UHGV virus genome: UHGV-1374897
Direction: 5' to 3' (one strand)
From: a virus
DNA length: 64,000 nt
Under the pieces are notes generated by a model. That model did not search any database. It was not told the DNA's origin and saw nothing but the letters and a program-made list of their open reading frames with translations. Made by a program: the position numbers and the translations under genes. Position 1 is the stretch's first letter; every line of letters begins with the position of its first letter. Positions 37,150 to 57,388 of the stretch are shown piece by piece.

Positions 37150-37151
37150 CC

Positions 37152-37523: not shown

Positions 37524-37531
37524 TAGAACCC

Positions 37532-38041: not shown

Positions 38042-38052
38042 ACGAATAAATC

Positions 38053-39217: not shown

Positions 39218-39220
39218 ATC

Positions 39221-39466: not shown

Positions 39467-39710
39467 ATATCTACTGGAAACCTTCTTAATGGAATACCCG
39501 CGAGCAGGAATCATTGCGGTGATTCATCGAAACTACCGTATCGCTATGTTCCCCTATCACAGGAATGAGGATGAGAAGGGACTTCCGACAAGAGACTTCG
39601 CCCTCGAAATGGCAATCGAACTTCGTGACAAGATTAAGAAATGCACGACGGAAGAATCCGACACGGGGATTACCTTCGTCGAAAAGGAACAACCAATCTT
39701 CAATGACTAA
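39453..39710 (+). CDS. Small paralog 7 of 7 (divergent subfamily C), 85 aa
   Basis: IAMFPYHRNEDEKGLPTRDFALEMAIELRDKIKK. Confidence 0.5.
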   Translation: MTNDKYLLETFLMEYPRAGIIAVIHRNYRIAMFPYHRNEDEKGLPTRDFALEMAIELRDKIKKCTTEESDTGITFVEKEQPIFND

Positions 39711-40630: not shown

Positions 40631-41318
40631 TAAGACCATTGATGCTATATGGAAGAAGATACAACCCACGGTTTCCGTGGAACCCGATGAACAACCCAAC
40701 GATTCCCCGGTATCCGCGGCATACGTGTCCCCGGCAGAGCTTGTCCGCAAGGGCATGGCTAAGAAGATTCTCAACATGGAGGATTACAAGATTACCGGGC
40801 CGGAATCTCTGCGCGTAACTCGCCTCCCCTCTGGCGACGGCGGCGGCACGTGGGAGATTGCCGGTATCTGTGATGGGATTGAACCCAAGGAATTCAATCT
40901 AATCAAATCCATGTTGGACCGGGGCGATAGAGAAGCGGCATGGGATGAATGCCTCCGCTATGTTCTCGCTAATACGGAACCACTGGTTGCCAAGGGAGTT
41001 GCAGGATGCTACGCCATTGAGTTCATGCTTCGCGACATGACCTTCAACATGGGTGTGGCGGGAACGACTAAGGTCGTCCAGCGCATGCTCGACATTGGTA
41101 TTGACGGCAAGTGGGGGAAAAATACCCAAGCCAAATGGACACATGCCATTCAATCATGGGATGAAATGGTAGTCCTCGATTTGCTGGACCGTGCTTGTCG
41201 TGCCCGCTATCATTCCATTGTAAGGGCCAATCCGGTGAAGGAAAAGTTCCTTACGGGCTGGATGAACCGATGCGATGCACGACATGCTTACGCCCTAACT
41301 CTGTTGTCAAGGAAATAA
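40560..41318 (+). CDS. Putative endolysin: GH108-like muramidase with peptidoglycan-binding segments
   Basis: GILGDKTIDAIWKKIQ and VQRMLDIGIDGKWGKNTQAKW resemble PG-binding helices. SGDGGGTWEIAGI resembles the GH108 catalytic region. Confidence 0.5.
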   Translation: MTRKDKIKEIQKWAGTSPDGILGDKTIDAIWKKIQPTVSVEPDEQPNDSPVSAAYVSPAELVRKGMAKKILNMEDYKITGPESLRVTRLPSGDGGGTWEIAGICDGIEPKEFNLIKSMLDRGDREAAWDECLRYVLANTEPLVAKGVAGCYAIEFMLRDMTFNMGVAGTTKVVQRMLDIGIDGKWGKNTQAKWTHAIQSWDEMVVLDLLDRACRARYHSIVRANPVKEKFLTGWMNRCDARHAYALTLLSRK

Positions 41319-41330: not shown

Positions 41331-41360
41331 CTTGACCCGTTAAACCCCAAATGATAACAT
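41331..41360 (+). promoter_or_regulatory. Sigma70-like promoter TTGACC-N18-TAACAT, followed by hairpin GGCGGCAAGG/CCTTGCCGCC abutting the start codon of gene 41386
   Basis: TTGACC at 41331-41336 and TAACAT at 41355-41360. Confidence 0.35.
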
Positions 41361-41385
41361 GGCGGCAAGGTAATTCCTTGCCGCC

Positions 41386-41808
41386 ATGTTTAAATTCGTC
41401 GCACAGCTTAACACCATTGACGGCAACGTGTGGACTTTGCTTCTCACTCGTATCGTCGATGAAATGTCTCCCGCATATCTCGTATTTGTGGGAGTTATTT
41501 ACGTGGCAGTAAAGCTGGCATATAAGTACCTCTCAAAAAAGATAGAGTTTAGTCTTGACAAGGAGAAGTCCTTTCTCATATTATTGCAAGAAGCTCTAAG
41601 AGTTATATCCGAGTTGGATGATTCTCTAGACCAATTACATGGAAAAATAGACAATCTACGAAGCGACCATGAAGAGATAATCGACCGCGCCTTCTGCGCT
41701 ATCTCGCAACAAGATACACCCCCCTCCGACAGAAATGAAACTATTCAATCTGTTCCGAAAAAGCCCCGAGCAGGAACAACTCGAAAACGAGTTGTCTCGG
41801 AATCTTAG
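41386..41808 (+). CDS. Membrane-anchored protein: holin or spanin candidate
   Basis: N-terminal TM helix LVFVGVIYVAVKLAYKYL followed by a coiled-coil. Adjacent to the endolysin. Confidence 0.4.
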   Translation: MFKFVAQLNTIDGNVWTLLLTRIVDEMSPAYLVFVGVIYVAVKLAYKYLSKKIEFSLDKEKSFLILLQEALRVISELDDSLDQLHGKIDNLRSDHEEIIDRAFCAISQQDTPPSDRNETIQSVPKKPRAGTTRKRVVSES

Positions 41809-42247
41809 TCAGTTGCAAAAACGAATTCGCGCGTGTGGCGAAAAGATTCATGCACGGAATCAATTCTATGCCTCCCTTCCTCTTGGTCGCGAGGGTGAGC
41901 TAAAACTGCCCAGAAACCAATGGGCCTATTTTTTACGAGGGAAAGTAGGAATTCGTTATGACGGCGAGACCCTTACCTCTTCGGTTACACAGGTTAAAAC
42001 TCGTGAAGAAGTTCAACTGCCAAGAATTATTGACGCGGAGAGAAGCCATAAATTACTTGTCATACGAGGATATGTTATTGACAGGAGAACAAACCGCACC
42101 TATTATCGGGGCGAGACAGTAAGTTTTCAGCGGGGAGAACCAATGCAATTAACGTTGAACGGACATGTGCACATGTTGTGGACACCCCCGCTTCCCGGTG
42201 CAATCATGCCGTTCTATCAAACCAATATACATGGCCTTAATTCCTAA
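41735..42247 (+). CDS. Hypothetical protein, 170 aa
   Basis: ORF. Confidence 0.4.
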   Translation: MKLFNLFRKSPEQEQLENELSRNLSQLQKRIRACGEKIHARNQFYASLPLGREGELKLPRNQWAYFLRGKVGIRYDGETLTSSVTQVKTREEVQLPRIIDAERSHKLLVIRGYVIDRRTNRTYYRGETVSFQRGEPMQLTLNGHVHMLWTPPLPGAIMPFYQTNIHGLNS

Positions 42248-45122
42248 CACTCCGGCCTCCAACCCACAGCCTCCGACGATACCCATTGGAACCACGGATT
42301 CCTCGTGGCGCAATGGGTTCAGTCCTGACAGGCCAATGGGTGAGCCGATAATTAACTTTCCCACTCCTGTGGTAAAGAACGTGATGTTCTTCGTTGAGAG
42401 GATTGCCAAGAATCCCAGCGAGATTACCATTGAATTGGGAACTCCGTTCGTACCCACCGCAGGTACGACCTTCCTCCCGTTCATGCGGGATGCAGTTCTC
42501 GTGCATGTCGAACCCGTCAATGAGGCGGCGAGACAGCACGTTTATCGTTTCTACTACATGGTCCCGCCGGAACAGCAGTTCCGATATAACATTCAGGACA
42601 TGAAGAAAATCCGTGACGGCTATACGTTGAAAGATACTGCCGCTACGGGTAAGTTCATGGGTCCGGATGCAGACACGGAAGAGTTGAAGGACTTCTACGA
42701 GATTACACGGGAATGGGTGGAACCCACGGATTCCGCGTATGCCCCGCTCCCTCTTGGCTCGTTTGACCCCAGCAACGAAAAGCTTGACCCTGACTTCTAT
42801 GACCAGCATTTCTACACGGCATACGATGCCCAGCTGGTATATGAAGAAGTAGCCCAGTTCGAAGAGGAACACCTGCGCAAGTACTTTCGTAGGGTCATCC
42901 GTGTGTATAAAACCCTGCCCGGCCCGGTGGTTAAAGAGTTCGTCCCTTATAACATTTGGCAGAAGGGAGATACGGTGTGGGATGAAGGTGGTCCGGGAAC
43001 GTCCCTGCCCGAATCTGAATGGGTGGCGCAGACTGCAATTAAGTTATCGAGAGAGGTCTGGGCCGCGCCGCTTTGGCCCGTCGATGGCGGAGGGAAGGAA
43101 CCGGGACAGGCTCGCATTCCTCACATGCCCCTCCTTGAACTGGACAATAAGCCCGTTAGTGCTGGCTGGGACAAGGGCAGTTATCCGAGTACGCAGATGT
43201 ACACCCTTGTATCTATGTACAAACGGAACAGTAACATTGCGGAGAAAGAGGAACAGAACAGCCTCTCCGGTAATTGTTGTAACCCTGATTCCCGTTTTGT
43301 CCGGTGCATCAATACAACCGTGACGACTAGCCAGTCCGTTGACTGGACAGCGAACGGCAATGTCCCGGCGATTGACCCTCCTGACCCCGGCGAGAACTGT
43401 AGCCAATGGCGTGTAGATTCCTCTGTGGTGGTCCATGAAGGATATAGCCACAAGGAAACGCGAAAGAGTTGCACCACCTACGACCAGATTGATGAATTCT
43501 GGGAATCCTCGTTTGACAGGATAACCAATCAGGTCTATCCTGTACTGCGGAAGATTGTACATAATCCGAGCACTGACTTCGATACCGATTGGCAGAAGGA
43601 AGGATTCACCAAATACACGGATGCCGTGGGCAATACCTACTATGGCCGGAAGCTGGAAACCCCGGAAACCGAGGAAGCCATTACCATCCCCGACACGCCG
43701 TGGACCAAAATCGGATATAACCTTTCTGACTTTACTGCGGTTGAGGATTCGGTCCCGGCCACGGGTATGCTCCATACCATGTCCCTCATCAATGGATGGA
43801 ACGACCCCAGTTACCCCCAGTTCGCGAATACTTTTGCATTGCTCGGCTCGTTTAGTACGGACAACCAGCATGCTGACCGAGGTATGAACGTGGGCATCCG
43901 GTTTAAGGGTATGCGCTGGTGGAACATATATATCCAGAACAGCTATCCCGAAGTCCAATCCCCCGGCACGATTGAAGCAGGATATTATTACAACGCCCCC
44001 AACCCTGACGGTCCGTGGCTGACACAGAACGGCCAGTACAAGATTGGGATGGAAGCGATTATCCGTGATACCCTCTATGCGGAGGGCGTAACGAGCGCAC
44101 CGTGGACGTTCCCACTGGGCGTCATGGATGGTACTGCCATCTACCAGCGAGCCAATGGATATAACCCAGAGATGAAATTCTCCGCGGGCACATTGCCCTC
44201 TGGTATTGGCAACGTATATCTGGATGTGGAGAACGGCCAGCTGAACATGACCGCCATTGTCATTAACCCCAATGGCAATGCCATCAATGGAATCATCCCC
44301 ATCCACATCAACGGGACAGAGGTCTTTAATATTGAGGTAGTCACGACTAGCAATACAGGACAACCCGACCTGCCGGAACCTACGGTCAATACATCGAACG
44401 GCGCGAAGACTAAATACCGTGCCGGGAACTATGTCCTTAACGCCGCAGTTGCCGAGAAGATTACCCTGACCTACGACGGAACGAAGTTCCCCTACTTCCA
44501 GTTCGGTGTCACTATATGCAGTCTCCGAGGCAATACGTTCAAGGTCACGATGAGCGACAAAATTCAGCGCGTCGTCCTGCGCCAATGGGTGAACCCCTGC
44601 TACGCCGTAGATAGTTACATGCAGATTCCGGGAATCGGGTACTACAAAAAATATACTACGACGATGAACTACAGTTTTCCCGCCGTGCTCGGTACAGTTC
44701 GTTGGGTTCCGTGGACTACGAGGCCCGACCTTTCTGGCAAGAATGCTGGACAGTACTTCCCGCAGACCACGATGAAGAGGGACAGCTATTCCGGTCCCTG
44801 CACTGCCGTGGTTGAAGAGGCATTCTCCCCTGACGGTACATGGCCTAAGGGCTGGGGCCTAGGTACTTCACCGCAGTTCACGACGAACAGCGGGTACTTC
44901 TCCACGCCGCTTTGCGATTACCGTATGCCCGCATGTCTCCATGCGCCCATGAATGTCTCCGTAACAATCGGCAATCAGGATGCCAAGTGGCTTCCCGGTG
45001 CGTTCAATACCACGTTCGCCGGAACCTCCGAGACTGACTGGAAACCCGTGACCTCCTATTACGCATCCCCATGGAACGGCGGCATGTTGTGCAAGAAAGT
45101 AACAATCTATCCTCCCAATTAA
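42231..45122 (+). CDS. Large structural (tail or receptor-binding) protein, about 963 aa
   Basis: Longer ORF call is 42165..45122; the probable start is the ATG at 42231. Asn/Gly/Thr/Trp-rich beta-type composition. Confidence 0.5.
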   Translation: MALIPNTPASNPQPPTIPIGTTDSSWRNGFSPDRPMGEPIINFPTPVVKNVMFFVERIAKNPSEITIELGTPFVPTAGTTFLPFMRDAVLVHVEPVNEAARQHVYRFYYMVPPEQQFRYNIQDMKKIRDGYTLKDTAATGKFMGPDADTEELKDFYEITREWVEPTDSAYAPLPLGSFDPSNEKLDPDFYDQHFYTAYDAQLVYEEVAQFEEEHLRKYFRRVIRVYKTLPGPVVKEFVPYNIWQKGDTVWDEGGPGTSLPESEWVAQTAIKLSREVWAAPLWPVDGGGKEPGQARIPHMPLLELDNKPVSAGWDKGSYPSTQMYTLVSMYKRNSNIAEKEEQNSLSGNCCNPDSRFVRCINTTVTTSQSVDWTANGNVPAIDPPDPGENCSQWRVDSSVVVHEGYSHKETRKSCTTYDQIDEFWESSFDRITNQVYPVLRKIVHNPSTDFDTDWQKEGFTKYTDAVGNTYYGRKLETPETEEAITIPDTPWTKIGYNLSDFTAVEDSVPATGMLHTMSLINGWNDPSYPQFANTFALLGSFSTDNQHADRGMNVGIRFKGMRWWNIYIQNSYPEVQSPGTIEAGYYYNAPNPDGPWLTQNGQYKIGMEAIIRDTLYAEGVTSAPWTFPLGVMDGTAIYQRANGYNPEMKFSAGTLPSGIGNVYLDVENGQLNMTAIVINPNGNAINGIIPIHINGTEVFNIEVVTTSNTGQPDLPEPTVNTSNGAKTKYRAGNYVLNAAVAEKITLTYDGTKFPYFQFGVTICSLRGNTFKVTMSDKIQRVVLRQWVNPCYAVDSYMQIPGIGYYKKYTTTMNYSFPAVLGTVRWVPWTTRPDLSGKNAGQYFPQTTMKRDSYSGPCTAVVEEAFSPDGTWPKGWGLGTSPQFTTNSGYFSTPLCDYRMPACLHAPMNVSVTIGNQDAKWLPGAFNTTFAGTSETDWKPVTSYYASPWNGGMLCKKVTIYPPN

Positions 45123-45127
45123 AGCTC

Positions 45128-45871
45128 ATGGCATTTATTACTAAATCCTATTTGACCTATCGCAATGTTTGCGACGAGCTTTGTATGCTCATCACAAACC
45201 AGCCGCCATCCAAGTCCAATGTTGACTTCCGTCGCATATTGAAGGAAGCGCAGAACCTCCTGCTCAATGAGGCCACGGTATCCCCGGATTCCGTGGATAC
45301 CTTGGACTTTGAAGGAATCCCTCGCGGGGGTTCTATCTCCCTGCCCGAAGAGTATGATAGTATTGTCGAGGCATGGTCGCCCAGCGGTAAGAAATACAAC
45401 ATCATCGACCGGGCCATGTTCGAAAGCAACACTTGGTTCCGTTCCGAATATCCGAAGCACGATAGCGGCTATCATGCTATCATGCTGGACATGGGGCTGA
45501 ATGAACAGAACCTCCGCACCTACTCGGTATTGTCTGGCAGTAACGGCATCAACGACAACCCCGCGAGCAACGTCATGACGGTTTCGGCACGGTGCGCATT
45601 GCGCGGCCTGTCTCTTAACATTTATGATGACGCGGCATGGGAGGACAAGGAGGTTCGTATCTACCCCGGATGTCTTCCCGCATTGAAGGCGATGATGCTG
45701 GCCGTGGTCTATAATGAACAGGGCAACACCCAAATGGGGACGGACAGCTACGGCCTTGCCGTCAAATACCTGAATGACCACCTGCGCAAATATCGTCAGG
45801 GAACGTATCAGGCTCCGAACATTATTCAGAATGGCGGCATCATGCAATGCCCCGGACTTAACCTCATGTAA
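45128..45871 (+). CDS. Hypothetical protein, about 247 aa
   Basis: ORF. The start follows the stop of 42231..45122. Confidence 0.45.
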   Translation: MAFITKSYLTYRNVCDELCMLITNQPPSKSNVDFRRILKEAQNLLLNEATVSPDSVDTLDFEGIPRGGSISLPEEYDSIVEAWSPSGKKYNIIDRAMFESNTWFRSEYPKHDSGYHAIMLDMGLNEQNLRTYSVLSGSNGINDNPASNVMTVSARCALRGLSLNIYDDAAWEDKEVRIYPGCLPALKAMMLAVVYNEQGNTQMGTDSYGLAVKYLNDHLRKYRQGTYQAPNIIQNGGIMQCPGLNLM

Positions 45872-45873
45872 TC

Positions 45874-46971
45874 ATGGCTACCAAACGTACAGACATATCG
45901 AGCGAGACGAGCGCGAGCGGGGGCATCCCCGCCGCCAAGTCCATTAAGCAGAAGACGATGGACGAGGTGCTTCCGAAGACGAACCCCGACATCCCCCTCC
46001 GTCCAATGAATAACAACGACCCGAACAAACCCGTCGACGCGAAGGAGATGAACACCATCGCCGCGGCCAATAGTAACCACGGCATCAAGAATCCCCCCGC
46101 ATCCGCGGCTCCCACGGCGGCCCAGTCTCCTAGTCCCTATGGGCGGGGGATTACTGAGGTCGACCCCAACAGCGCGGCCTACGCCGCCCAGCAACGGGCG
46201 ACCTATGCGGCGGGCATGCAACAAGCCGCGGCGGGGAAACTCTCTGCGGAGGACAGGCTTATGCTTCGTGGCGTGGACCAGAACATAAGCCGTGGGCAGA
46301 TGCCTGTCATATCTCCGACTATGCCGACACAAGCGACGGCTTCCACGGGTTCCAAGGGTTCCGCTCCAACCGCTAGCCCCGACACCTCTATGGCTGGGTT
46401 CTATGCGTATGCGGAGAAGAAGCTTGGCCCGGAGAAGTTCCAGATATTCATGAACATGCCGGATGCGGATAGGAACGCGATGTATAGCAAGTTTGTAGAG
46501 AGCCAGACCAAGAACGTGCCCGCCGCGGGAGCTACCGCGGGAACTACTGCCGCCCCCTCTGGCTCTAGGTTCCCCGCCTCTGCTCTCCCCTCCGGCAATT
46601 CCTCCATACCTACGAGCGTCCCGACGACTGCGGGTACTGGCACGGCCGAGAATATGCTACGAACCTTGAGGGATGAAACCGCCAGCCCCGAAGCGAGAGC
46701 ACAGGCGCAAACATACCTCCGCGTCCGAACCATGTACGCCCAGCCGGAAAAGTTTGGTAAGGAGATTAAGACCCTCGAAAAACTGGAACGGGCTAAAATA
46801 CAAGAACTGCGCAACATGTTCAGGAATCGGCACAACATCCGGGACCCCCGCTTCGCTCGGCAATACGCGCAGTATAAAGCCCTACAGAAGAAAGACCCGC
46901 AAGCGAGGCTCGCCCTCTACACTGAACTGATGAAGGGACCGGAGTTCACTCACTTGGACTTCCGAAAATAA
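45874..46971 (+). CDS. Ala/Pro/Thr-rich low-complexity protein, 365 aa
   Basis: ORF with a basic helical C-terminus. Confidence 0.45.
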   Translation: MATKRTDISSETSASGGIPAAKSIKQKTMDEVLPKTNPDIPLRPMNNNDPNKPVDAKEMNTIAAANSNHGIKNPPASAAPTAAQSPSPYGRGITEVDPNSAAYAAQQRATYAAGMQQAAAGKLSAEDRLMLRGVDQNISRGQMPVISPTMPTQATASTGSKGSAPTASPDTSMAGFYAYAEKKLGPEKFQIFMNMPDADRNAMYSKFVESQTKNVPAAGATAGTTAAPSGSRFPASALPSGNSSIPTSVPTTAGTGTAENMLRTLRDETASPEARAQAQTYLRVRTMYAQPEKFGKEIKTLEKLERAKIQELRNMFRNRHNIRDPRFARQYAQYKALQKKDPQARLALYTELMKGPEFTHLDFRK

Positions 46972-46993: not shown

Positions 46994-47048
46994 TTGACCC
47001 TTGCCCCACTCATGATAGGATAGCGAAGACCCACATGAGTGGGGCAAA
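46994..47048 (+). promoter_or_regulatory. Promoter TTGACC-N16-TAGGAT for the giant gene, with a 14-bp perfect inverted repeat clamped around the -10 box
   Basis: TTGACC at 46994-46999 and TAGGAT at 47016-47021. Inverted-repeat arms TTGCCCCACTCATG (47001-47014) and CATGAGTGGGGCAA (47034-47047). Confidence 0.5.
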
Positions 47049-47073: not shown

Positions 47074-50000
47074 ATGGCCATTGACTTTAGTACCGCCAAT
47101 ATGTCCGACTTCACTCCGAAGTCGGGAAGCAGTATTGCACGTGAACAGCGAGCCGTAGAAAGGCACGCCGCGTGGCAAGAGACGCAAGCGCAGAAACAAG
47201 AAGACAGAAAACAGAAAGCACTGGACCGCGAGCAAAGGCTAGCGGAAAAGAGACAGACCCGTGCGGAGAAAGCCGCAGAAGCCACCGCAGAGTTTGACAC
47301 CTTTATCGTTAAGTCCGTGGATGCCTTTGCGGAGAAACAGAAAAAGGATGCGGAACACGCGAAGAATGTAGAATGGCAAGATAAATCCCGCGCCCATACG
47401 GAACAAGAATGGAAAACCGCCGAGGAAAATAAAGCCCTCGACATCTTGAACAAAGGAAACCGTGGGTACAGCTTTGAGGGAATCGACTACATGAAAGACT
47501 ATGTAGAGCGCGGAGAGGATGCACTGGTTGATTTGACGGCCGCCGCTCGTGGCGATAAGGATGCTATTAAAAAGATTACGAATAATACGGGCATCGTCGC
47601 AGTCCTTTCCTCCGAACTTCCTCCCCAACATTCTGCATTCTTATCCCGCTCTGGCTTCGGAAGTGGAGAGGACGGGAACCCCGTCGTAACGGAAAAGTTC
47701 CTCGCTATTGCCGCGGACAGAAACCGTAACGCAAAGGCGGTGGCCAAATCCATTGCCACCACAATGGAGAAGGCCCGGAAGGATTACCTCAACAAGAATC
47801 TAGATGTTGTGTCTGGTAAACCTACGGCACAAGCCATCGAGACCGCACCTATTGCTTACACCGCAGAAGAAATAGAAAGCGTCATCAATACGATTAGGCG
47901 CGAAGACATTGGCAACTATCGTGCCGCTAAGGCTCTTTACGACAAACACCGCTCTTCTTCGACGGAGGGCGTGCAGAAGAAAACCCCCAGCCAAACGAGC
48001 GTGGGGGAGCTTGGCGTTGGCGAATTCTCTGATTCAGCACCTTCATTTACTGGGAATGTTTTTGCTGAACTCGCCAACCTTTCCAAGTCTCCCAGCAAAA
48101 TGTTCCGACTTGTCCGCGACTACGGGGATTACCTGTCCCGGAGTACGGAAGATATTAAATCCCCGGAAGCCAAGGAATCCGATTCCCTTTCTCCCGCCGC
48201 TAAACGTGCAGGGGAAATGGCAGTAGCGCAGGTTAAAGCCGTGGACAACATTGTCTCGCGGATGGAAGAGAGCTACACCGGATTGGATGCCGTGGGACTA
48301 AGGGATGCTCTCCTTAACCCCGAAGCAGTAGCTTCTGCGGCATTGGCCCTTGCCCCCGGCGTGGACATGGATGCAGTGCGCGAACGAGCAAATACCTTAG
48401 CCACCGAGCGTCATGCCGTGGTAACCTCCGACTACCAGAAAGCAATGGCTGATGCCATGATGGAAGAATTGGCTACAAGGTTTCCGGGGGTTCCGAAGAA
48501 TATATTACTACAGGCCGGGACGACGAAACTGATTCAGGACTATACCACCAAAGCTACACCGAGAGGCACCCTCATGGATGCAGTCAAAGGCGCACTGGCT
48601 AACTACCGAAGCGCGGCAGGACAAGTTGCGGACGTACTTACCTTCCAACCGGGGAATAGTGTGGGCAAGACCACTGACCCAATGAGTACGATGGAATGGA
48701 GGAAGGGAACGAGGCACGGCTCTTGGGAGTATGGTGTAGTGGGAGGCCCTGCCTTTGAAGTAGGTCCCGAACAGTTGAAGGAATACATGGCCCAGTACCA
48801 TATTGAAAGTACTCGCGATGCCCTTAACTCCCTCTCCCATGCCGCACGTATGGGTGACTTGGGCGTAGGTCGTGGCAGTCTCTTTGCGTACAACCCGCAC
48901 ACCAAGGAAGTTGATACGAACGCCACACTCGAACTGAACCCCAATGCTCTCTACAATGATAAGCTGATGGACCAGAGCATAGAGGCTCTCCGTGCTAGTG
49001 GCGCGGACGAAGGTCTCATCAATCGCACCATTGAGAAGTTCCAGAACCTCCGCAAGAAATCCGCACAGGAACTTGTGAAGGACAACATTGCATTGGACGA
49101 GACGCTGGGGACGCTTCGCGATACGTGGCTTGGCTCCGGCTTGCAGTTCAACCCTATCTTGACTGAATCCATGAAGCATCTGGACAAGCACCTTTCCTTC
49201 AAGAATTTTTACAACGAACAGAAGGAAGTGGGCAAGAGTGACGAGGACATCCTCTCCGCATGGCAGGAGAAAGGGCAAGACACCATCAACTCTGTTCTCC
49301 GTGGGTTGCAGATAGGTACACACAAGGCAATCGACCTTGGGACAGGTGCCGCCTATGGTGCTCTTCTCTTTGCACAGAATGCAGTTGGCAGTCGTGCGGC
49401 GATGGAACATACCCGCACCCTCTGGGACCAGCTGAACAAAAAACAGGAAGCGGAAGCTGAACTTGTTCGAGGCAATATCCTTGCGGATTATACTGCGGAA
49501 ATCGCTAACCTCGGCTACCAAATGGTAGCAACCGCGGGGGCTGGTAAAGTTGGCGGCCTCGCTGGGCGTGCACTGGAACGTACCGCGCTATCGCGGTTCG
49601 CGAAGGCAACGGCTAACGTTGTAGCGAAGCGGGCAGAAGCTCTTGTCCCTGCCGCCCGTCCGGGATTGGCGGGACGTTTGAGTGGAACTATTCAGCGCAA
49701 CCTCGACAACCTTGCGGCGTTGAACCTCGAACGGGCAGGAGCTGGAGCCGGGGTAAATCTTAGCATCATCTCGCAGGTTGCACCGAATGCTTACTCCGAC
49801 ATCTTCTATACCATTTATGATAGGGAGATGGAAGGGAAGGAACCGACTGCCGAGAACACGAACAGGGCACAGAGCATTGCCAACATGCGTGCCCTCTTTG
49901 GTGCGGCTCTCGTATCTACTGGTAGTACTCTCATCAACAACCGCGCAGGTATGGATTCCTTCATGCGTAAGATTGTTGGGGCTAAAAACCTTCGCGGTCA

Positions 50001-53000
50001 ATCTCCATTCCAAACTCTTGAACGGAAGATGGCCGGATGGAGAAGCAAGCCATTTAAGGAGATGAACACGAAGAAAAAGACGTTTGCCGTTGCTTCCTAT
50101 CTGTACAGCACGAGCAAGGCCGTAGTGGAAGGAGCCACCGAAGAACTGGCAGACGAATTCCAAGAATGGGCATTTACCGAACTGGTGAAGAACGGAGAAA
50201 TCTCTGAATCTTCTATTGCCACTACCGACCAAGTGATTAGCGGTGCCATAAAGATTGCTTTCCTCGGAGGTATCGGCGGCTACGTTGGTAGCCACTTAGC
50301 TGGTGAAGGGAACATACGTTTCCAAACCGAAGCCGCTCCAACTCTCGATGTAAAGGATGCTACTTCCATGCTACCGGATATTACGAAAGATGCGAGCAAC
50401 ATCATCGAGGAAACGGGCAAAGCCATTACCAAAAACAATGTGCCGGAAAGCTTGGTAGAAACCGGAAAGAAGGTTATCGAGATTGCCGGGGAGAAGGGGG
50501 ATGCCGCGGAAGTTGCCCGCGAATGGGTGGACAAATCCATTGCCCATGAAAGTCTAGTTGTCTCCGACGAAACCCGCAAGGCATGGGTGGATGGCGCAGT
50601 CCGTATGGGTATCAGCAACTTCACCCAGTTCCGCAACCTAGTTGAACGGGCCTCCGAAATACATACCTATGAGGGCAGTGCCGCGGCAAGCTCCTTCATG
50701 GCAGAAGCCATTAACGACTTGCCCAATACCCTGTCATTCCCAAATAAGGAAAACCTCGACACCATGCGAACCATGTTGTCCGAAGCCCTTGATGCTATGG
50801 GAGACCGGGTTCAGGTTATCGAAGTAGACGACGACCTGTCCATCATTACTACAGGGGACGAGGACCTTGATGCCGCCATTAACGTTATTAACGGATTGAC
50901 GGAAGCCGCGGCTACCACGGAATCCCCGGCTACCACGGAATCCCCGGCTACCACGGAACCCAAGGAATCCCCGGTAGCTATTGCCCGGAAGGAGAGGGAC
51001 AATGCTATTGCCCCCATCACTGCTATGGTAGAGACGGGAGTAGTTACCCCCAGTTCCGTGGAAACCGTGGATAACATGGATGCGGCAATCGCCTCGTTCG
51101 ATAGTAATACTGGTGCGTGGCTCTCCTATGGTACGCCATTGGAGCGCGGCGCGAAGCTCGTCTCCTTGAACGAGATGACCGGGATTAACGCCCCCATGAT
51201 TACCAGCAACACGGGAGAAACCATTGTCATCGCTCCGCACGCAAGCATGTACAACACAGGTGAGGGAGGTACCCCCAGCACCAAGTGGGGAGACAAGGTC
51301 TCCGCTCTCAATCTCCCGACGGATGGGACTGGCGCAAATGCCTATGGCATCCTTTCGGACCTTCAAGCTAATGCCTCCCCCGCACAGGCCGCGGCCATTG
51401 ATGGAGTGCTCCGCGCACTGCATGCCGCTGGTTTGGATGTTGCTATCCGAGCCACCAATGCCCCGGCGAACATCTCTTCCCCCGCCAGTATCACCTACAT
51501 GAACGGCACGGACGGGAAGCTTGTCGGCGGTGTCATTGACCTGTACGTGGACCGGGACAATGCGATTGAAAGCGTAACGGGAACGGTACTACACGAAGTC
51601 ATCCACCTCATTGACCGTCATCTTCGTGCCACCAACGCGGACTATTCCCAGCGGATGGATAAGATTAGAAGCGCGATTGCAGAGAACTACAACAATATTG
51701 TTGATAGTCTCTCCGCTATGTATGATGCTAGCGTGGACATCAATGAGATGAACGCCATCGCCGCGCTCGCTTCTGACCTCAACTATGGTCTCCGCGGCCC
51801 GGACGAATTTGCCAGTGTCGCGTTCTCCAATCCTGTCATGAACTTCATGATAGCGGAAGCTAGCGGAGACAATATAACCATCACGGATTTGGCTCGCTAT
51901 GCCGAAGCGGCTGGAGGCAGGAGGCCCATTCATGTGCGCCTCATCGAATGGCTTAAGGATTTGATTAGGGACGTGCAACAAACTGCGGACGCTATGGACG
52001 GAACCACCGCCGCAGAACACGTGGCTGAATGGGATTCCTATGTGGCCCGCATCGCGGACATGACCCCCGGCAAGTGGTTCGACATGCCTCGCACTCCGTC
52101 ATGGAAGGTAGACGATACGGATTATACTATGGGCAACGGGGTAGATTATTTTAACCCGATGGCCTATGAGACTGACATGACCCGAAGACTGTCCTTCGGT
52201 CTGGCCGCAGAAATCATTGGCACGAATGCCGGGAACTGGGTAACCAGTATTAAGAACGGATGGCTGGGTGCAACCAAGAACTGGGACAAGGCTGGCATCA
52301 ATGTTAAGTCCGAGGAACAGAAGCTGGTTGTGCTGGAACAAATGGCCAACGTGAATGCGGCATACGAACGTAGTATTAAACGCATTGACAAAATTGGCGA
52401 TATGCTTCAACGCCGTGCGGATAAGCTGGGCTGGGATGCCGCTACGCGAAAGAAATGGAGCAAGTCCATTCTTGACATGTCGGGGAATATGGACAACGAT
52501 ATTGACCCTGAAACTGTTGCACGCATTAACGCAGAGGCTCAAGCAGAAGTTCGTCAGCATGAACAGACCCGCGACTTCCGTATCGCGTTGGCTAAGAAGA
52601 CCGTCACCGATGCCGTCAATAGGCACGCGGAAGCGGTGCGTCTGGCTAACTCCCTTGCGCTTAATAGTGAAGGGAGATTGGAAATCAACGACATGATGCG
52701 CCGGATTAAAGACATGAGCGTCAAGGGATATGGTGCCATGCTGGACAAGCAGGTAGCTCTCCCCATGCTTTCCCAGCAGATTCACAAATCGCTCTCCGAC
52801 CTTGGCTCTCGTATCTCCGCGACGGGGAATGCCAATCTGGAAACCACCTACTTTGGCCTTGCCCGCGACACACAAAACTATCTCGCGGATATGATTAACG
52901 AGGTGGATAGTCCCTTCTCTATGGATGAACTTCTGGACAGGTGGTCCAACCTTCGCAATGACTTCCTCTATGCGGAGAGTACAAACCATCCCACCATCGT

Positions 53001-56000
53001 CCCTATGATTCAGGACATCGCTAAGACACGGGCCGAAGCTAAACAAATCATCCGGGAAGCCAAGGATGATTTCTACGCCGCAACAAAGCGAGCGGGCGTA
53101 ACTCGCGCTGGCGTAGCTACCCCTGCTGGTTCCGTGTGGCTGAAACGGGACAACGCTATCCTCAATGCACGCCGTCAAAAACAAGCGGAGTATATGGCTA
53201 AGCGGGATGCCGCTGAACAGTGGCTTCTGTCACAGGGGGTTGTAGGTCAACTGGTCCACAATGTCATCGCCAATTCCCGTAAAGAAATTGCCGCAACGCA
53301 AATCTCTATTGCCAAGCTCATTGGAGATAGCCGCATGGCTGACAACGCCGCGGAGATGAATTATCTTCATCGCACCTACATGGCCGTAGGACGCCATGCC
53401 GGAGACTTCACCCGGACGATGAAGGACATCATCGCAAACCCCAACGGAGAACTGGCGCAGAAATACGACGGTCTGACGAAACTGTTGCAGGAAGCCGCAA
53501 TCTCTCATGCCGAAGCGCACCAGAGAGAACTGTCCGAAAACGTAAGCCAAGTGCTGGACAACATGCAGGCATTGGCCGCGCTCCACGACGAGTTGAAACT
53601 TCCGCTGGTGTCAGCTCCCACGGGAGCCTCCGCGAATTATAAACTCCTGTTCGAGGGTGTAGCCAAGAACTACAGGAACAGGGAAATTCTGGACTTCATT
53701 CAGAACAACTTCGGCCAGGTTCAAATGCTTGCAGATTTGAGGGACGGCCACAACATCAGTGCCATATATAATAAGGCCATGAGCATGATAGCACAGGCAG
53801 ACTATCGCACGAAGTCAAAGATGACAGAGGCGAAGGAAACTCTGGACATGAATGCCAGAGATAGTTTCCTCGCTGATGTCTTCTCCAGCCTTCCGGGAAA
53901 AACGATTGCGGACAAAATTGGCAGTCTTCAATCCCCGGCATCCGTGGCTTCCGAAGTGAACAAGGCCATCCCCACTATCCCGACTTCGGCCATTGACCAG
54001 ATATGGAACACGCCCGATATGAATGCCGCAGAACGACTGGACAAGACGCTCAATCTTCTTCGCGGTCAGGCTGGCGTTCTCATGAGGATGAACGGCATGG
54101 GCAACGTCATCTCCGCTACCGACTTGAAAGCGTTGCAATATCCGGAACTCTCCCGCCTCGCAGTGAACGATGCCATGAAGGCCATTGACGAAGTTCTGTC
54201 CAAGAAGAGGACGAATGAAGATGCGCTGGCCCAGCGGAAACGCTTGCCCGAATGGCAGAGGAAAGCTATGTATGAACTTAGCGACCTCACCATTGGGGAT
54301 GCCATTGGGACGTTACAGAATACCCTATCCATGCAGTCGAAGATTGCCGTGAACCAGTTGCTTGCTGACGAGTATGCCTCCGTACTGAAAGCGCAGGGTG
54401 TGGTCGTACCCCCGAATTCCACAAACCGTACCTCGGACATGGTGGAAATCTCCTTGAAGAATACGAAGAATGCGTTGAACGGAATGTACGCCGACAAGGA
54501 TGTAGCCGATGCCATCTACCGCATCTACAGACCGAGCGACGACATCCTGAATAACAGGACGGACGACTATAAGGAGGTGCGCAAGTACTGGCAGAAGTCC
54601 GGCAAGGGGCAAGGATGGTGGAATAAGGCGGGTGGCTTGGCTAACCTTTCTGTCTTAATAGCGAGTCCTAATTCCACGTTACGTAACTTATATGGTACAG
54701 TAGCTCAAATGACCCATGCGGGTGCACTCCCATTCACGGGGAGTAAAGACATCGCAAACCTTGTCGGGGACTGGGTCCAGTTGCGTAAGCTATGGTGGCT
54801 ATCACAGGGCAAGGACCTTGCTTCACAGGCTTCCGCGGATAGACTGCTGGCCGCGGAAGACAGGTACAACGAGAAGATTCGCTACTGGCAAGAGCTTGGT
54901 CTGCTGGACGCAGGTCAAGGGGAGTTCCTGCGCAACGTCTGGAAGTCTGACGAGTTCAGTAAGATGGCAGGAGAATTTGAAGAAGTGAATGAGGATTCCT
55001 TCTTCAAACTGGCCGAAGCTCTGAACGAGAAACAGGAACGGACGAAGGGCGAGGTGGCTAAGGATGCCGCCAAGATGGCGGGCAAAGTCGTAGCATGGCC
55101 CATCAAAACGATGTCCTTCGCCTATGGCTTGCCGGACGCGGCGGCCAAGATTGTTCTCTTCACTAACCAGAGAGCGATTGCCGATACCCAATTAAAGGTA
55201 CAACTGGCGCGGGCGAAGGGCAAGGCCAACCCCAATGCGCGGGACCAGATACTCATTGACGCGAGCCAGACTACCCAGAGTTGGGATGCTTATGTGGACA
55301 GGTATACTGCCCACATGGTGAAGAGCTTGCTCCCCACGGGTTCGCGTACTCCTTCGTGGGTGAAAACCCTGAATATAGTTGCGGCTCCGTTCTTCATGTT
55401 CCAGTACCATACCTTCCAGTCTGTAGCCTACAACCTTGGCCACGCCATAGGTGAAGGGGTAGACGGTGTGTGGGCTATCAATAACGGCATGAAGAAGGAG
55501 GGGGCTTACCTCTTGGGACGCGCTATCCTTCGTACCGCGGGTTCCTTAGTAACTATTTCTGCAACCTCTGCGGTCTCTTCCTGGGTTGCCCGACAGATTA
55601 TCGCCAGTGTCTTGGGAGATGACGATGACCGTAAAATCATTGACGACGCGGAAGTCATGAGGAAGCTGGCAGATAGTGGGCTAATTCCTGACTATGATAA
55701 GTTCGGGGACTTGATTGGCATCATAGATATGAAGCGACATGAGTTCGAGTATTTGAACCTTGAATACATGAACCCGTTCAAGACCATCAGGGTGTTAGCC
55801 AAAACCCTGCCCAGCCTCTTCATGGATATGGATGTGGACAAGTGGGGGATGAACAAGGTTGCCGAACTGAAAAACCTGCTGGAAAATACGGTGCTTGAAG
55901 AATCCCTCCTTCTGAATGCCGCTTCTGAATTGTTTAATGAGGAAGACTTCAATTACAAGCATAGCCTCTCCGGTGATGAAAGCGTCAACGTTCTCCCGGC

Positions 56001-56730
56001 AGTCGGCAACGCAATCCTGTTGGCCGCAGGGCTGAACCCCTCGTTCGGCAGTGGACATACATGGCAAGTCCTTGAACGATTCGCGACGGTTGCCAATAAA
56101 AAGATTCCCTTCTACGGCTGGGCAGTCAAGTCAGGTAAACAATTGTTTAGCGATACACCTGACATGAGTGCCGCGGCATACGGGTTACAGTCCTTGGGTG
56201 CGGGCCTCCGTCGTCCGAAGGATTTGACCGAAGCCCTTGCCGCCGGGTTAAAGAATGCCAACGCGGCAGTCACTAAGTCGAAGCGAATGAGCGTCCTTCG
56301 TCCGGACTTCTACAAGAGAATGGAATCCGGAGTGGATGTGGAATCTATGGAAGCCGTGGAAACCGCGGATGCCGTGAAGAATTTCACCAAGCTAGTCAAT
56401 AGTGTCCGGTTTGTTACGGAAATTACAAACATGCTTGACCCCGCTCTGCGGAAGGAAGTTCTGGCTTCCGCGATTGAGAGTTCCGGTATGAGTGCCAAGA
56501 CCTACGGCGCGGCCATGAAAGGCATCATGCCCTACATCATTAGCCCGCAAGCAGGACGTGAGGCTATCGCGAAGCTCAACCGTGAATTGCAGAAGTCTAA
56601 TACCACGGACGAGGGCAAACGCCTAATCGAAGAGCAGAAGAAACTCATTATCAACCTCATGAGGAAGGGTAGCATTCAGATTGATGGGGCATTGAGTGTG
56701 GAGGAAATTCATAATCGGATGAAACAGTAA
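47074..56730 (+). CDS. Giant 3218-aa protein with zincin-like HExxH motif: candidate virion-associated, ejected or polyvalent protein
   Basis: Single uninterrupted ORF. Extremely charged K/E/R/Q coiled-coil N-terminus. HEVIHLIDRH at nt 51592-51621 (aa about 1507). TTESPA linker repeats at 50913-50966. Confidence 0.7.
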   Translation: MAIDFSTANMSDFTPKSGSSIAREQRAVERHAAWQETQAQKQEDRKQKALDREQRLAEKRQTRAEKAAEATAEFDTFIVKSVDAFAEKQKKDAEHAKNVEWQDKSRAHTEQEWKTAEENKALDILNKGNRGYSFEGIDYMKDYVERGEDALVDLTAAARGDKDAIKKITNNTGIVAVLSSELPPQHSAFLSRSGFGSGEDGNPVVTEKFLAIAADRNRNAKAVAKSIATTMEKARKDYLNKNLDVVSGKPTAQAIETAPIAYTAEEIESVINTIRREDIGNYRAAKALYDKHRSSSTEGVQKKTPSQTSVGELGVGEFSDSAPSFTGNVFAELANLSKSPSKMFRLVRDYGDYLSRSTEDIKSPEAKESDSLSPAAKRAGEMAVAQVKAVDNIVSRMEESYTGLDAVGLRDALLNPEAVASAALALAPGVDMDAVRERANTLATERHAVVTSDYQKAMADAMMEELATRFPGVPKNILLQAGTTKLIQDYTTKATPRGTLMDAVKGALANYRSAAGQVADVLTFQPGNSVGKTTDPMSTMEWRKGTRHGSWEYGVVGGPAFEVGPEQLKEYMAQYHIESTRDALNSLSHAARMGDLGVGRGSLFAYNPHTKEVDTNATLELNPNALYNDKLMDQSIEALRASGADEGLINRTIEKFQNLRKKSAQELVKDNIALDETLGTLRDTWLGSGLQFNPILTESMKHLDKHLSFKNFYNEQKEVGKSDEDILSAWQEKGQDTINSVLRGLQIGTHKAIDLGTGAAYGALLFAQNAVGSRAAMEHTRTLWDQLNKKQEAEAELVRGNILADYTAEIANLGYQMVATAGAGKVGGLAGRALERTALSRFAKATANVVAKRAEALVPAARPGLAGRLSGTIQRNLDNLAALNLERAGAGAGVNLSIISQVAPNAYSDIFYTIYDREMEGKEPTAENTNRAQSIANMRALFGAALVSTGSTLINNRAGMDSFMRKIVGAKNLRGQSPFQTLERKMAGWRSKPFKEMNTKKKTFAVASYLYSTSKAVVEGATEELADEFQEWAFTELVKNGEISESSIATTDQVISGAIKIAFLGGIGGYVGSHLAGEGNIRFQTEAAPTLDVKDATSMLPDITKDASNIIEETGKAITKNNVPESLVETGKKVIEIAGEKGDAAEVAREWVDKSIAHESLVVSDETRKAWVDGAVRMGISNFTQFRNLVERASEIHTYEGSAAASSFMAEAINDLPNTLSFPNKENLDTMRTMLSEALDAMGDRVQVIEVDDDLSIITTGDEDLDAAINVINGLTEAAATTESPATTESPATTEPKESPVAIARKERDNAIAPITAMVETGVVTPSSVETVDNMDAAIASFDSNTGAWLSYGTPLERGAKLVSLNEMTGINAPMITSNTGETIVIAPHASMYNTGEGGTPSTKWGDKVSALNLPTDGTGANAYGILSDLQANASPAQAAAIDGVLRALHAAGLDVAIRATNAPANISSPASITYMNGTDGKLVGGVIDLYVDRDNAIESVTGTVLHEVIHLIDRHLRATNADYSQRMDKIRSAIAENYNNIVDSLSAMYDASVDINEMNAIAALASDLNYGLRGPDEFASVAFSNPVMNFMIAEASGDNITITDLARYAEAAGGRRPIHVRLIEWLKDLIRDVQQTADAMDGTTAAEHVAEWDSYVARIADMTPGKWFDMPRTPSWKVDDTDYTMGNGVDYFNPMAYETDMTRRLSFGLAAEIIGTNAGNWVTSIKNGWLGATKNWDKAGINVKSEEQKLVVLEQMANVNAAYERSIKRIDKIGDMLQRRADKLGWDAATRKKWSKSILDMSGNMDNDIDPETVARINAEAQAEVRQHEQTRDFRIALAKKTVTDAVNRHAEAVRLANSLALNSEGRLEINDMMRRIKDMSVKGYGAMLDKQVALPMLSQQIHKSLSDLGSRISATGNANLETTYFGLARDTQNYLADMINEVDSPFSMDELLDRWSNLRNDFLYAESTNHPTIVPMIQDIAKTRAEAKQIIREAKDDFYAATKRAGVTRAGVATPAGSVWLKRDNAILNARRQKQAEYMAKRDAAEQWLLSQGVVGQLVHNVIANSRKEIAATQISIAKLIGDSRMADNAAEMNYLHRTYMAVGRHAGDFTRTMKDIIANPNGELAQKYDGLTKLLQEAAISHAEAHQRELSENVSQVLDNMQALAALHDELKLPLVSAPTGASANYKLLFEGVAKNYRNREILDFIQNNFGQVQMLADLRDGHNISAIYNKAMSMIAQADYRTKSKMTEAKETLDMNARDSFLADVFSSLPGKTIADKIGSLQSPASVASEVNKAIPTIPTSAIDQIWNTPDMNAAERLDKTLNLLRGQAGVLMRMNGMGNVISATDLKALQYPELSRLAVNDAMKAIDEVLSKKRTNEDALAQRKRLPEWQRKAMYELSDLTIGDAIGTLQNTLSMQSKIAVNQLLADEYASVLKAQGVVVPPNSTNRTSDMVEISLKNTKNALNGMYADKDVADAIYRIYRPSDDILNNRTDDYKEVRKYWQKSGKGQGWWNKAGGLANLSVLIASPNSTLRNLYGTVAQMTHAGALPFTGSKDIANLVGDWVQLRKLWWLSQGKDLASQASADRLLAAEDRYNEKIRYWQELGLLDAGQGEFLRNVWKSDEFSKMAGEFEEVNEDSFFKLAEALNEKQERTKGEVAKDAAKMAGKVVAWPIKTMSFAYGLPDAAAKIVLFTNQRAIADTQLKVQLARAKGKANPNARDQILIDASQTTQSWDAYVDRYTAHMVKSLLPTGSRTPSWVKTLNIVAAPFFMFQYHTFQSVAYNLGHAIGEGVDGVWAINNGMKKEGAYLLGRAILRTAGSLVTISATSAVSSWVARQIIASVLGDDDDRKIIDDAEVMRKLADSGLIPDYDKFGDLIGIIDMKRHEFEYLNLEYMNPFKTIRVLAKTLPSLFMDMDVDKWGMNKVAELKNLLENTVLEESLLLNAASELFNEEDFNYKHSLSGDESVNVLPAVGNAILLAAGLNPSFGSGHTWQVLERFATVANKKIPFYGWAVKSGKQLFSDTPDMSAAAYGLQSLGAGLRRPKDLTEALAAGLKNANAAVTKSKRMSVLRPDFYKRMESGVDVESMEAVETADAVKNFTKLVNSVRFVTEITNMLDPALRKEVLASAIESSGMSAKTYGAAMKGIMPYIISPQAGREAIAKLNRELQKSNTTDEGKRLIEEQKKLIINLMRKGSIQIDGALSVEEIHNRMKQ

Positions 56731-56747: not shown

Positions 56748-56786
56748 TTGACCTTCGGGGGCATGGGAGATATAATTCTCCCATGC
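56748..56786 (+). promoter_or_regulatory. Promoter TTGACC-N17-TATAAT with a 10-bp perfect palindrome GCATGGGAGA / TCTCCCATGC flanking the -10 box. Predicted leaderless start at ATG 56783.
   Basis: TTGACC at 56748-56753 and TATAAT at 56771-56776. Palindrome arms at 56761-56770 and 56777-56786. Confidence 0.5.
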
Positions 56787-57388
56787 CCTCTTTTCGTATA
56801 GTACCCAATCATATTATGGCCACCCCTCCGGGAGGCTGGAAGTTTGTTGTCCCCGAATCCATGAGTGTCAGGCTCAAGGGAACCAAGGTTTCCGCGGGTT
56901 CACTGGAACAACTCCGCAAATCAGTCGCCCGTCTCTTCATGAATAACGGAGAACCCTTTCAGGTTGCGCTCTTTGAATCAGAGCTTTGCGCTTCTCTCCC
57001 TCCCCAGTACTGCACCACCTGCGGTGATAAGGGAATTGAATGGAAGGAGTATGAACCCATGAGTGCCAAGAAGATATTGGCCTTCTTCGGTACTATGGTT
57101 CTCTGGTATCGACGGGGACACAGGTTTGTAGACGAGGCAGAAGCTCGCCGCCGCTATGCTATCTGCGCCTCCTGTCCGTATGCTACCTCTACGCCTCCCC
57201 CGGATTTAGAGAAGCAGGGGTGCGCTACCTGCGGTGCCGAAGGAGCTGGCCGCAAATTCCTCAAGGAAAAAATTTCCGGGCTGGCAGACCTGACTAATGG
57301 GGCGGCCCCTCTCTATTGTACCTTATGTGGTTGCGACCTATCAGTAAAGGCTCACTTCGATATTGAATCTGACTGCTGGCTAAAATAG
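56783..57388 (+). CDS. Cys-rich zinc-binding protein, 201 aa
   Basis: CTTCGDKG, CASCPY...CATCGAEG and CTLCGCD cysteine clusters. Confidence 0.5.
   Translation: MPSFRIVPNHIMATPPGGWKFVVPESMSVRLKGTKVSAGSLEQLRKSVARLFMNNGEPFQVALFESELCASLPPQYCTTCGDKGIEWKEYEPMSAKKILAFFGTMVLWYRRGHRFVDEAEARRRYAICASCPYATSTPPPDLEKQGCATCGAEGAGRKFLKEKISGLADLTNGAAPLYCTLCGCDLSVKAHFDIESDCWLK

Follow-up and report, generated by a model that had tools for sequence, protein, structure and literature searches.

A giant cysteine-free protein from an uncultured human-gut phage lineage is a candidate ejection protein with an HExxH domain related to subdomain C1 of N4 gp50

We analysed a 64,000-nucleotide stretch of viral DNA (UHGV virus genome UHGV-1374897; hereafter, the window), in which one open reading frame (ORF) on the plus strand, at positions 47074..56730, encodes a cysteine-free protein of 3218 amino acids (aa). 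We conclude that the product of this giant ORF is probably the largest of the ejection proteins (an internal virion or 'pilot' protein) in an uncultured lineage of podovirus-like human-gut phages with genomes of ~70 kb. On our best reading, the giant protein is a new variant of the giant ejection-protein class that lacks an RNA polymerase (RNAP), and a cousin of gp50, the virion RNAP (vRNAP) of phage N4. The evidence is a ~200-residue HExxH domain that profile comparisons identify as homologous to subdomain C1 of N4 gp50, the occurrence of the same module in phiKMV gp37-type ejection proteins, and a shared absence of cysteine; from these comparisons, we infer packaging, ejection and catalysis.

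The ORF runs uninterrupted from the ATG at 47074 to the stop at 56730, as a sequence-only reading of this DNA had stated, and its start is backed by an N-terminus, MAIDFS, common to distant clades. The whole protein has no family match in Pfam, PHROGs or NCBIfam, no match among PDB sequences with either a single sequence (phmmer) or a family profile, and none in 50,697 phage records by megablast or tblastn. Metagenomes contain ~400 near-identical full-length relatives, carried by contigs 60-73 kb long. When 1.84 billion cluster representatives were searched exhaustively by phmmer with aa 1300-2499, just three other full-length clusters appeared, and two further searches added family members beyond those three. 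The family thus gathered comprises ~5 clades, at 51%, 46%, 29%, 23% and 23% identity, with all members having 3199-3470 aa and 0-3 Cys. Loci of the family in IMG/VR are nearly all from human-gut data sets. We found no relative in 185,579 species genomes, and hence no prophage copy and no clue to the host. The clades have 178 invariant columns in common, clustered in five places.

The giant protein contains exactly one HExxH motif, HEVIH at aa 1507-1511 (H1507, E1508 and H1511; 51592..51606, plus strand), as compared to ~0.04 expected by chance from its composition; the extended form of the motif is hhHExxHhhDxHxRxTNPxY. HExxH is kept in 14 of 15 diverse relatives (23-51% identity), the exception being P0151, which has HKAAH, and residues H1507, H1511, D1514, Y1524, E1578, F1579, N1586 and P1587 are invariant across clades. 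The last four form a second motif, E1578-F1579...N1586-P1587 (51805..51834, plus strand), 67 residues downstream of HExxH. This motif aligns with the NEFMAWxLxN motif of N4-like C1 sequences, and its Glu helix is a candidate source of the third metal ligand. In the AlphaFold2 (AF2) model of aa ~1409-1659, the HExxH helix comes after a helix and three strands, and E1578 opens a later helix, an order like that of gluzincins. The conservation of HExxH and the invariant downstream Glu indicate that the motif is a genuine zincin-type signature, as the sequence-only reading had proposed, and the HExxH...E centre may catalyse zinc-dependent hydrolysis. The same reading had suggested SprT- or ArdC-type membership, which we could not substantiate. 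Pfam searches with the HExxH region alone from eight members gave only sub-threshold matches, six of the 18 matched families being zincins (M90, M91, DUF6782, M78, SprT and M13); SprT scored E 0.18, and ArdC and MPTase-PolyVal were unmatched.

We next compared the domain (aa ~1426-1645; 51349..52008, plus strand) with subdomain C1 of N4 gp50 (residues 2124-2375), which "possesses a conserved HExxH motif" and was not assigned a function in the 2026 study of the N4 structure (PMC13434306). The N4 motif lies at aa 2228 of gp50. A hidden Markov model of the giant-protein family did not match N4 gp50 by hmmsearch, and the similarity is seen only by profile-profile comparison, for which we used N4 gp50 and N4-like C-terminal domain (CTD) sequences from IMG/VR. 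With hhalign, the family profile for aa 1380-1700 matched a profile of 49 diverse N4-like C1 sequences at Prob 96.3% (E 1.8e-9) over 204 columns, an alignment that extends from ~60 residues before HExxH to the helix after (D/N)EF......N and covers the backing helix and the strands. A second comparison, with a 46-sequence N4-like C1 profile, gave Prob 95.7% (E 1e-8) over 163 columns, as compared to 50.5% for a shallow profile. The score climbed with the depth of the N4-like profile, from 38.7% with five close sequences, through 83% (P 9e-6) with ten, to 96% with 49; a profile of only the 41 'far' N4-like sequences still gave Prob 96.2%. Independent halves of the giant-protein family each recovered the match (93.8% for the window clade and 95.4% for the distant clades). 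By contrast, reversed-template controls gave P values of 0.027-0.24, and crossed controls, in which the zincin region was compared with N4 C2, and the C-terminal part of the giant protein with N4 C1, gave Prob <0.5%; comparisons of neighbouring genes with N4 gp51-55 served as a further negative control (minimum P 0.03). Known zincins aligned over 28-49 columns around HExxH only: a 79-sequence profile of MtfA (M90), which is shallow in that its members are ≥80% identical, scored 15% over 46 columns, and a single SprT sequence scored 8%. We conclude, on the strength of these profile alignments, that the HExxH domain is homologous to C1.

The same module occurs in a second group of ejection proteins. 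A search of PDB sequences with the N4-like C1 profile identified 9sfn_G, an 'Internal virion protein' of 1337 aa, with E 1.2e-7. This is the length of phiKMV gp37, which carries its HExxH at aa 423 and gave Prob 95% against N4 C1. Plain tblastn with the HExxH region of gp37 recovered the vRNAPs of Pectobacterium schitoviruses (E 2e-7), and also matched genes in phages of Ralstonia, Xanthomonas and Limnohabitans that encode 1573-2425 aa; the Ralstonia gene bears the label DNA-ejectosome component, and the other two are labelled hypothetical protein. Five diverse gp37-like sequences matched N4 C1 at 97.3%, and the giant-protein family at Prob 60% (E 8.6e-5) over 137 columns, as compared to 0.1% for the reversed control and 0.7% for MtfA. 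A merged N4 and gp37 profile matched the giant-protein family at 95.3% over 215 columns. Since the gp37-like proteins range from 1337 to 2425 aa, the C1-type module is found in ejection proteins that differ widely in size. The longest of them is the 2425-aa 'hypothetical protein' of Xanthomonas phage Alcala (MW822537, 43.7 kb), encoded at 33698-40975, the fetched fragment of which contains a pair of HExxH motifs and lacks Cys; the relatives in Ralstonia and Limnohabitans are proteins of ~1575 aa.

The giant protein has no Cys among its 3218 residues, as compared to 44 expected at the frequency in the other ORFs of the window (1.37%; Poisson P about 6e-20). N4 gp50, gp51 and gp52 are likewise free of Cys, whereas other N4 late proteins contain 0.69%. 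The same is true of phiKMV gp35, gp36 and gp37, of all fetched gp37-like fragments, and of the 365-aa protein encoded immediately upstream of the giant ORF. We suggest that the missing Cys marks proteins that must unfold and cross the oxidising periplasm. The idea that the giant protein is packaged in the virion and ejected, which had been put forward from the sequence alone, is therefore supported by the homology of its HExxH domain to N4 gp50 C1 and to the module of phiKMV gp37, and by the shared absence of Cys, with packaging itself following by analogy.

We found no indication of a polymerase. Comparison of aa 1-1400, and of the full-length protein, with a 17-sequence profile of N4-like RNAPs (hhalign) gave P ≥ 0.22, similar to reversed controls, and the protein lacks the D.DGD motif of the double-psi-beta-barrel (DPBB) RNAPs of crAss-like phages. 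These results agree with the earlier failure to find RNAP motifs. We modelled the protein with AF2 in two predictions, of aa 930-2129 and aa 2019-3218, each from a 20-row alignment, and the 2290 aa so modelled are alpha-helical apart from the sheet of the zincin-like domain. The missing DxDGD motif and the alpha-helical models together speak against a crAss-type double-psi-barrel RNAP. The first model had a mean pLDDT of 61.8, its best part being aa ~1409-1659 (pLDDT 70-88). The second had a mean pLDDT of 59.4 and is nearly pure alpha-helical, with confident blocks alternating with stretches at pLDDT <50. Foldseek searches of the PDB (to 2026-04-08) with both models returned only non-specific helical or solenoid matches (E > 0.04), a weak negative in that models of 1200 aa are ill suited as queries for a domain of 200 aa, and the N4 CTD may be missing from the library. 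No lytic transglycosylase (SLT) or lysozyme domain was found with Pfam, NCBIfam or PHROGs. Similarly, methylase, helicase, ArdC-N, ART and MPTase-PolyVal domains were not detectable. With the zincin-like domain as the only one recognisable, and no second conflict domain in the same three collections, we do not place the giant protein among the polyvalent proteins, as had been suggested.

Several observations weigh against a kinship with N4 gp50 and a role in ejection. All that is demonstrably shared with N4 gp50 is the C1 domain. Comparison of the C-terminal region with N4 C2 gave only P 0.06 (reversed, 0.26), and that of the two N-terminal domains (NTDs) aligned just 33 columns (P 0.0074) with an N4 NTD profile that is itself shallow (8 sequences). 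At the level of a single sequence, N4 C1 scores no better than MtfA against the family profile, and the specificity of the match therefore rests on how many columns align and on how much the score gains from a deeper profile. In P0151, a cluster representative (7 member sequences) from the 29%-identity clade, HKAAH replaces the motif Glu with Lys, while relatives 62% identical to it keep HEAAH; catalysis may thus be dispensable. The AF2 models cover aa 930-3218 only. None of 25 comparisons between the neighbours of the giant gene and N4 gp51-55 revealed similarity (minimum P 0.03). The phage has no cultured relative, as judged by megablast and tblastn against the phage records and by comparison of its large terminase subunit (TerL) and DNA polymerase. 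Lastly, the structural genes 3' of TerL have no Pfam or PHROG match that would indicate the tail morphology. An apparent similarity to N4 C2 (P 0.016-0.025, pairing 'PDAAAKI' with 'SDFIAKAI') weakened with a deeper N4 profile (P 0.06-0.63), and was dropped.

If the giant protein is an ejection protein, a few copies would be packaged in the capsid and, at infection, would be threaded through the tail one module after another, before the DNA or along with it. The protein would then help to build or extend a conduit across the envelope and end at or inside the inner membrane, into which its conserved Gly/Ala-rich amphipathic segments may insert. The HExxH...E centre could act on an envelope or host target met during entry, or on the giant protein itself. 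Such a mechanism would make the giant protein the counterpart of T7 gp16, phiKMV gp37 and N4 gp50.

Of the alternatives, the one we rate highest, although unlikely, is a late-expressed, non-packaged cytoplasmic or membrane protein (a scaffold, anti-defence or host-takeover factor) that shares a mobile HExxH domain with ejection proteins. Only a single domain is common to the giant protein and N4 gp50 or phiKMV gp37, the giant protein evolves faster than its neighbours (25% as compared to 40-43% identity in the distant clade), and near-identical strains differ by allelic cassettes, as conflict proteins often do. However, the total absence of Cys, as in the examined ejection proteins of two phages, would be puzzling in a cytoplasmic protein, and the gene lies in the structural/late operon rather than among early genes. 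Moreover, in the phage records searched, the matches to the gp37 HExxH region that fall under annotated features, together with the fetched contexts, are all inside large gp16-type, internal-virion or vRNAP genes, several of them labelled just 'hypothetical protein'. A true virion RNAP, with a polymerase domain too divergent to see in the N-terminal ~1270 residues, is very unlikely. The segment aa ~120-1270 is about the size of the N4 RNAP domain and falls largely before the start of the AF2 models at aa 930, and N4 vRNAP itself is barely recognisable as T7-like; nonetheless, the profile comparison, the lack of a match in any of the three family collections and the missing DxDGD all speak against it. 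The domain order would also differ, since the N4 RNAP directly precedes C1, and promoter-like sites in both the late and early regions are sigma-70-like, suggesting transcription by the host RNAP.

The sequence-only reading had named a conventional tape-measure or fibre protein as the contrary case, and gene position, AF2 architecture and family searches speak against both. We consider a tape measure protein of a long-tailed phage, with an embedded peptidase, to be improbable to a slightly greater degree than a hidden polymerase. In favour of it, the giant protein is mostly alpha-helical with Gly/Ala-rich segments, no other ORF in the window exceeds 1000 aa, and no family match indicates the tail type. 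Nevertheless, the giant gene is downstream of the endolysin gene and is followed by just two small ORFs (201 and 126 aa) before the end of the operon, with no distal-tail or baseplate genes 3' of it, and the AF2 models show folded bundles with linkers and a globular zincin domain, not a single long coiled coil. At ~1.5 Å per residue, a helix of 3218 aa would imply a tail of ~480 nm, which also counts against a tape measure, and the homologous domain occurs in ejection proteins of podoviruses. Least probable of all, in our view, is an external fibre, adhesin or decoration protein. Large size and strain-variable cassettes would fit, but the protein is almost all alpha-helical, with no beta-rich, Ig-like, collagen or beta-helix regions, it matches no carbohydrate-binding or fibre families, and its C-terminus is among its most conserved parts, the opposite of what is seen in receptor-binding proteins. 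Based on these comparisons, we favour an ejection protein with a C1-type HExxH module.

Outside the HExxH domain, the N-terminus has a charged, low-complexity segment (aa 17-110; 47122..47403, plus strand) that is weakly conserved between clades and has a spurious match to Caldesmon as its sole Pfam match. The bias towards K/E/R/Q/A noted earlier is real; however, these residues make up 64% of aa 17-110, so that 'almost entirely' was an overstatement. A role for this segment as a DNA mimic or ejection signal is not supported, with no evidence in either direction. The Gly-rich segment noticed previously is AGAGKVGGLAGRA, a Gly/Ala-rich amphipathic stretch at aa 821-833 (49534..49572, plus strand) within a highly conserved block (aa 750-900), in which G824 and G831 are invariant. 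An invariant acidic motif, EGxxEExxDExxxW (aa 1019-1032, in a block extending to 1048), is followed by the most hydrophobic segment of the protein, VISGAIKIAFLGGIGGYVG (aa 1053-1073; 50128..50292 for motif and segment, plus strand), which may serve in membrane insertion. The TTESPA-type linker that had been reported is present as a low-complexity T/E/S/P/A stretch at aa 1277-1300 (50902..50973, plus strand), with a length that varies between strains and AF2 pLDDT <50. It is analogous to a 100-aa low-complexity linker in N4 gp50 (PMC13434306). The C-terminal ~1470 aa (52321..56727, plus strand) are all-alpha in the AF2 model, with helical-bundle modules separated by low-confidence linkers and no known fold, and their similarity to N4 C2 is not significant. 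Two conserved blocks lie in this region: W..G..L..P..RN..GT..Q at aa 2506-2556 (54589..54741, plus strand), and the most conserved block of the family, LPTGxRTPxWV...PFFxFxxHTxxSxxY, at aa 2752-2794 (55327..55455, plus strand), with 17 invariant positions.

Relatives that are 93-99% identical overall carry two clearly different allelic versions, or mosaic cassettes, of aa 351-500 (~48124-48573) and of aa 1101-1200 (~50374-50673), and one strain has a duplication of a 29-aa unit near aa 690. One contig that carries P0001, a protein 99% identical to that of the window, is listed as 437,645 bp, as compared to genomes of ~70 kb; a misassembly, concatemer or bin artefact may account for this length.

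The giant gene lies towards the end of an operon that runs through genes for proteins of 985, 247/266, 365, 3218, 201 and 126 aa and ends before a bidirectional terminator and a convergent block on the minus strand. The position at the far end of the late operon was thus described correctly before, but the gene is not directly after the lysis cassette, since three conserved genes (985, 247/266 and 365 aa) intervene. Synteny extends to a 23%-identity clade, in which the endolysin gene is followed by small ORFs, then by genes for ~950-985 aa, ~245-266 aa, ~365-421 aa, the giant protein and ~200 aa, and finally by convergent early genes. The first gene of the syntenic block encodes a conserved 985-aa protein with 15 Cys that is rich in G/P/N/W/Y (42165..45122, plus strand) and is probably a tail structural protein. 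It is followed by a conserved 247/266-aa protein with 5 Cys (45071..45871, plus strand) and by the 365-aa protein (45874..46971, plus strand), which has an Ala/Pro/Gln-rich low-complexity N-terminus and is a candidate smaller or partner ejection protein. The divergence of the 365-aa protein keeps pace with that of the giant protein, at 25% identity in the distant clade, and the protein shows no resemblance to N4 gp51 or gp52. Directly 3' of the giant gene is a conserved, Cys-rich 201-aa protein (56783..57388, plus strand), with 11 Cys that include those of CTTCGD, 40% identity in the distant clade and no family match.

A promoter-like sequence, TTGACC-16-TAGGAT, lies 5' of the giant ORF within a perfect 14-bp inverted repeat (47001-47014 / 47034-47047; element at 46994..47047, plus strand). 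After the giant gene, TTGACC-17-TATAAT has its -10 hexamer in the loop of a 12-bp hairpin that is followed by a T-tract (56748..56798, plus strand); this element looks like a terminator for the giant gene that overlaps the next gene's promoter, and in other clades compensatory changes preserve the hairpin. The combination of a -35-like TTGAC(C/A/G) and a perfect 10-15-bp inverted repeat around a -10-like hexamer (in distant clades, around the -35) recurs in late intergenic regions, at 46994-47047, 56748-56798, 26957-27010, 41332-41395 and 23637-23700 of the window and in loci L004, L028, L031, L032, L037 and L038. The recurrent element looks like a compact terminator-promoter unit. Hence, the palindrome-clamped promoter ascribed to the giant gene exists, but it is not private to that gene, being one of at least five across the late region.

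The window is from a phage genome, of which ~6 kb lie outside it, and has replication genes, TerL, an endolysin, a late block and a convergent minus-strand block. The replication genes encode a primase-helicase (4604-7474), a family-A DNA polymerase (8864-10918) and a helicase (10915-12270). TerL (15129-16973) is closely followed by an HNH-endonuclease-like ORF (17660-18424; PHROG 374, E 1e-5), and the endolysin (PG_binding_3; 40560-41318) is followed by an ORF with one transmembrane segment (41386-41808). An endolysin of this type, together with the sigma-70-like promoters, points to a Gram-negative host. The convergent block, from 57.9 kb on the minus strand, includes DUF3310, ThyX and an NAD-dependent ligase. 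When at least 30 other ORFs in the window were scanned with Pfam, PHROG and NCBIfam, only replication genes, TerL, HNH endonuclease, endolysin, ThyX, ligase, DUF3310 and a PD-(D/E)XK nuclease were recognised, and no match indicated the tail type. TerL and the DNA polymerase have at best ~26% identity to any cultured phage. Four tandem, overlapping paralogous ORFs of 78-80 aa with several Cys lie at 38053-38985, and share the motif GFF(R/W)V...C(V)A.F.YC....G.FTK.QAKKLA.KL.RKIE. A relative at 23% identity (L003) has an IS605 OrfB/TnpB (Cas12f-like) gene at 25580-26791, within the early-gene block; the window has no such gene.

The giant protein touches on two open questions: how protein in megadalton amounts is threaded through a tail channel of ~35 Å, and what the non-polymerase two-thirds of N4 vRNAP do. 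It amounts to a natural 'deletion variant': a giant in N4 gp50's size class that keeps the HExxH module and has lost or never had a polymerase. A giant with HExxH and without a polymerase argues that the module and the beads-on-a-string body serve genome delivery separably from transcription. One domain ties together Schitoviridae, phiKMV-type Autographiviridae and an abundant uncultured human-gut lineage, and the C1 module offers a way to find ejection proteins, a class notoriously difficult to annotate, from their sequence, with the absence of Cys as a cheap extra marker. More speculatively, and with the balance of our judgement leaning the other way, the HExxH 'C1' module, and not the RNAP, may be the conserved core, of ancient origin, of the largest proteins that short-tailed phages eject (Schitoviridae gp50, phiKMV-type gp37 and the gut lineage). 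If so, injected proteins would have become giants independently of virion transcription, either a polymerase was inserted to give N4 vRNAP or one was lost to give the gut family, and the module would perform a zinc-dependent step at the start of infection.

Among known systems, polyvalent proteins resemble the giant protein in being very large, possibly delivered with the DNA, and equipped with a zincin-like domain, but their defining additional domains are not detectable in it (Iyer et al. 2017, PMC5512222). Gluzincins (MtfA/M90, ImmA-IrrE/M78 and SprT) share an HExxH helix after a small beta-sheet and an invariant Glu on a helix ~70 residues downstream; however, no gluzincin family reaches threshold. 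T7 gp16, an inner-membrane component of the ejectosome, would be analogous in proposed role and in position, as the largest and last ejection protein. No sequence relation to the giant protein was found, and the C1 profile did not match T7 gp16 in the PDB search, although the presence of T7 gp16 in that set was unchecked. phiKMV gp37 and the gp16-type proteins of Autographiviridae (1337-2425 aa; PDB 9sfn_G) share the HExxH module (aa ~415-561 of gp37), are free of Cys, and are the largest of the ejection proteins. By contrast, gp37 is 2.4 times shorter than the giant protein, with no similarity outside the module, and the annotations of gp37-type proteins include a lytic transglycosylase or endolysin domain, whereas the giant protein has no SLT or lysozyme match in Pfam.

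The closest counterpart is N4 gp50, the 3500-aa vRNAP of Schitoviridae, which is encapsidated and ejected (PMC13434306; structures, PDB 9PNR/9PNQ). Its NTD (residues 1-906), which is likely membrane-spanning, is followed by the 100-aa low-complexity linker, the RNAP domain (residues 1007-2101), C1, and C2 (residues 2376-3500), the last being roughly 110 kDa, largely alpha-helical and without a structural homologue; this beads-on-a-string architecture allows passage through the tail (PMC13434306). The two proteins differ in that gp50 has an RNAP, that C2 and the NTD are not detectably homologous, that gp51-gp55 are unrelated to the neighbours of the giant gene, and that ejection is shown for gp50 and inferred for the giant protein; the gut phage is otherwise not schitovirus-like, as judged by TerL and DNA polymerase (~26%). 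They are alike in being giant single chains without Cys, encoded by genomes of ~70 kb and bearing an HExxH domain, with a low-complexity linker after the N-terminal part, modules on disordered linkers and, after C1, >1100 aa of alpha-helical sequence without a known fold. Both genes lie at the end of the late operon, which in N4 has the order ...gp54, gp53 (885 aa), gp52 (150), gp51 (644) and gp50 (3500, last), convergent with the next genes.

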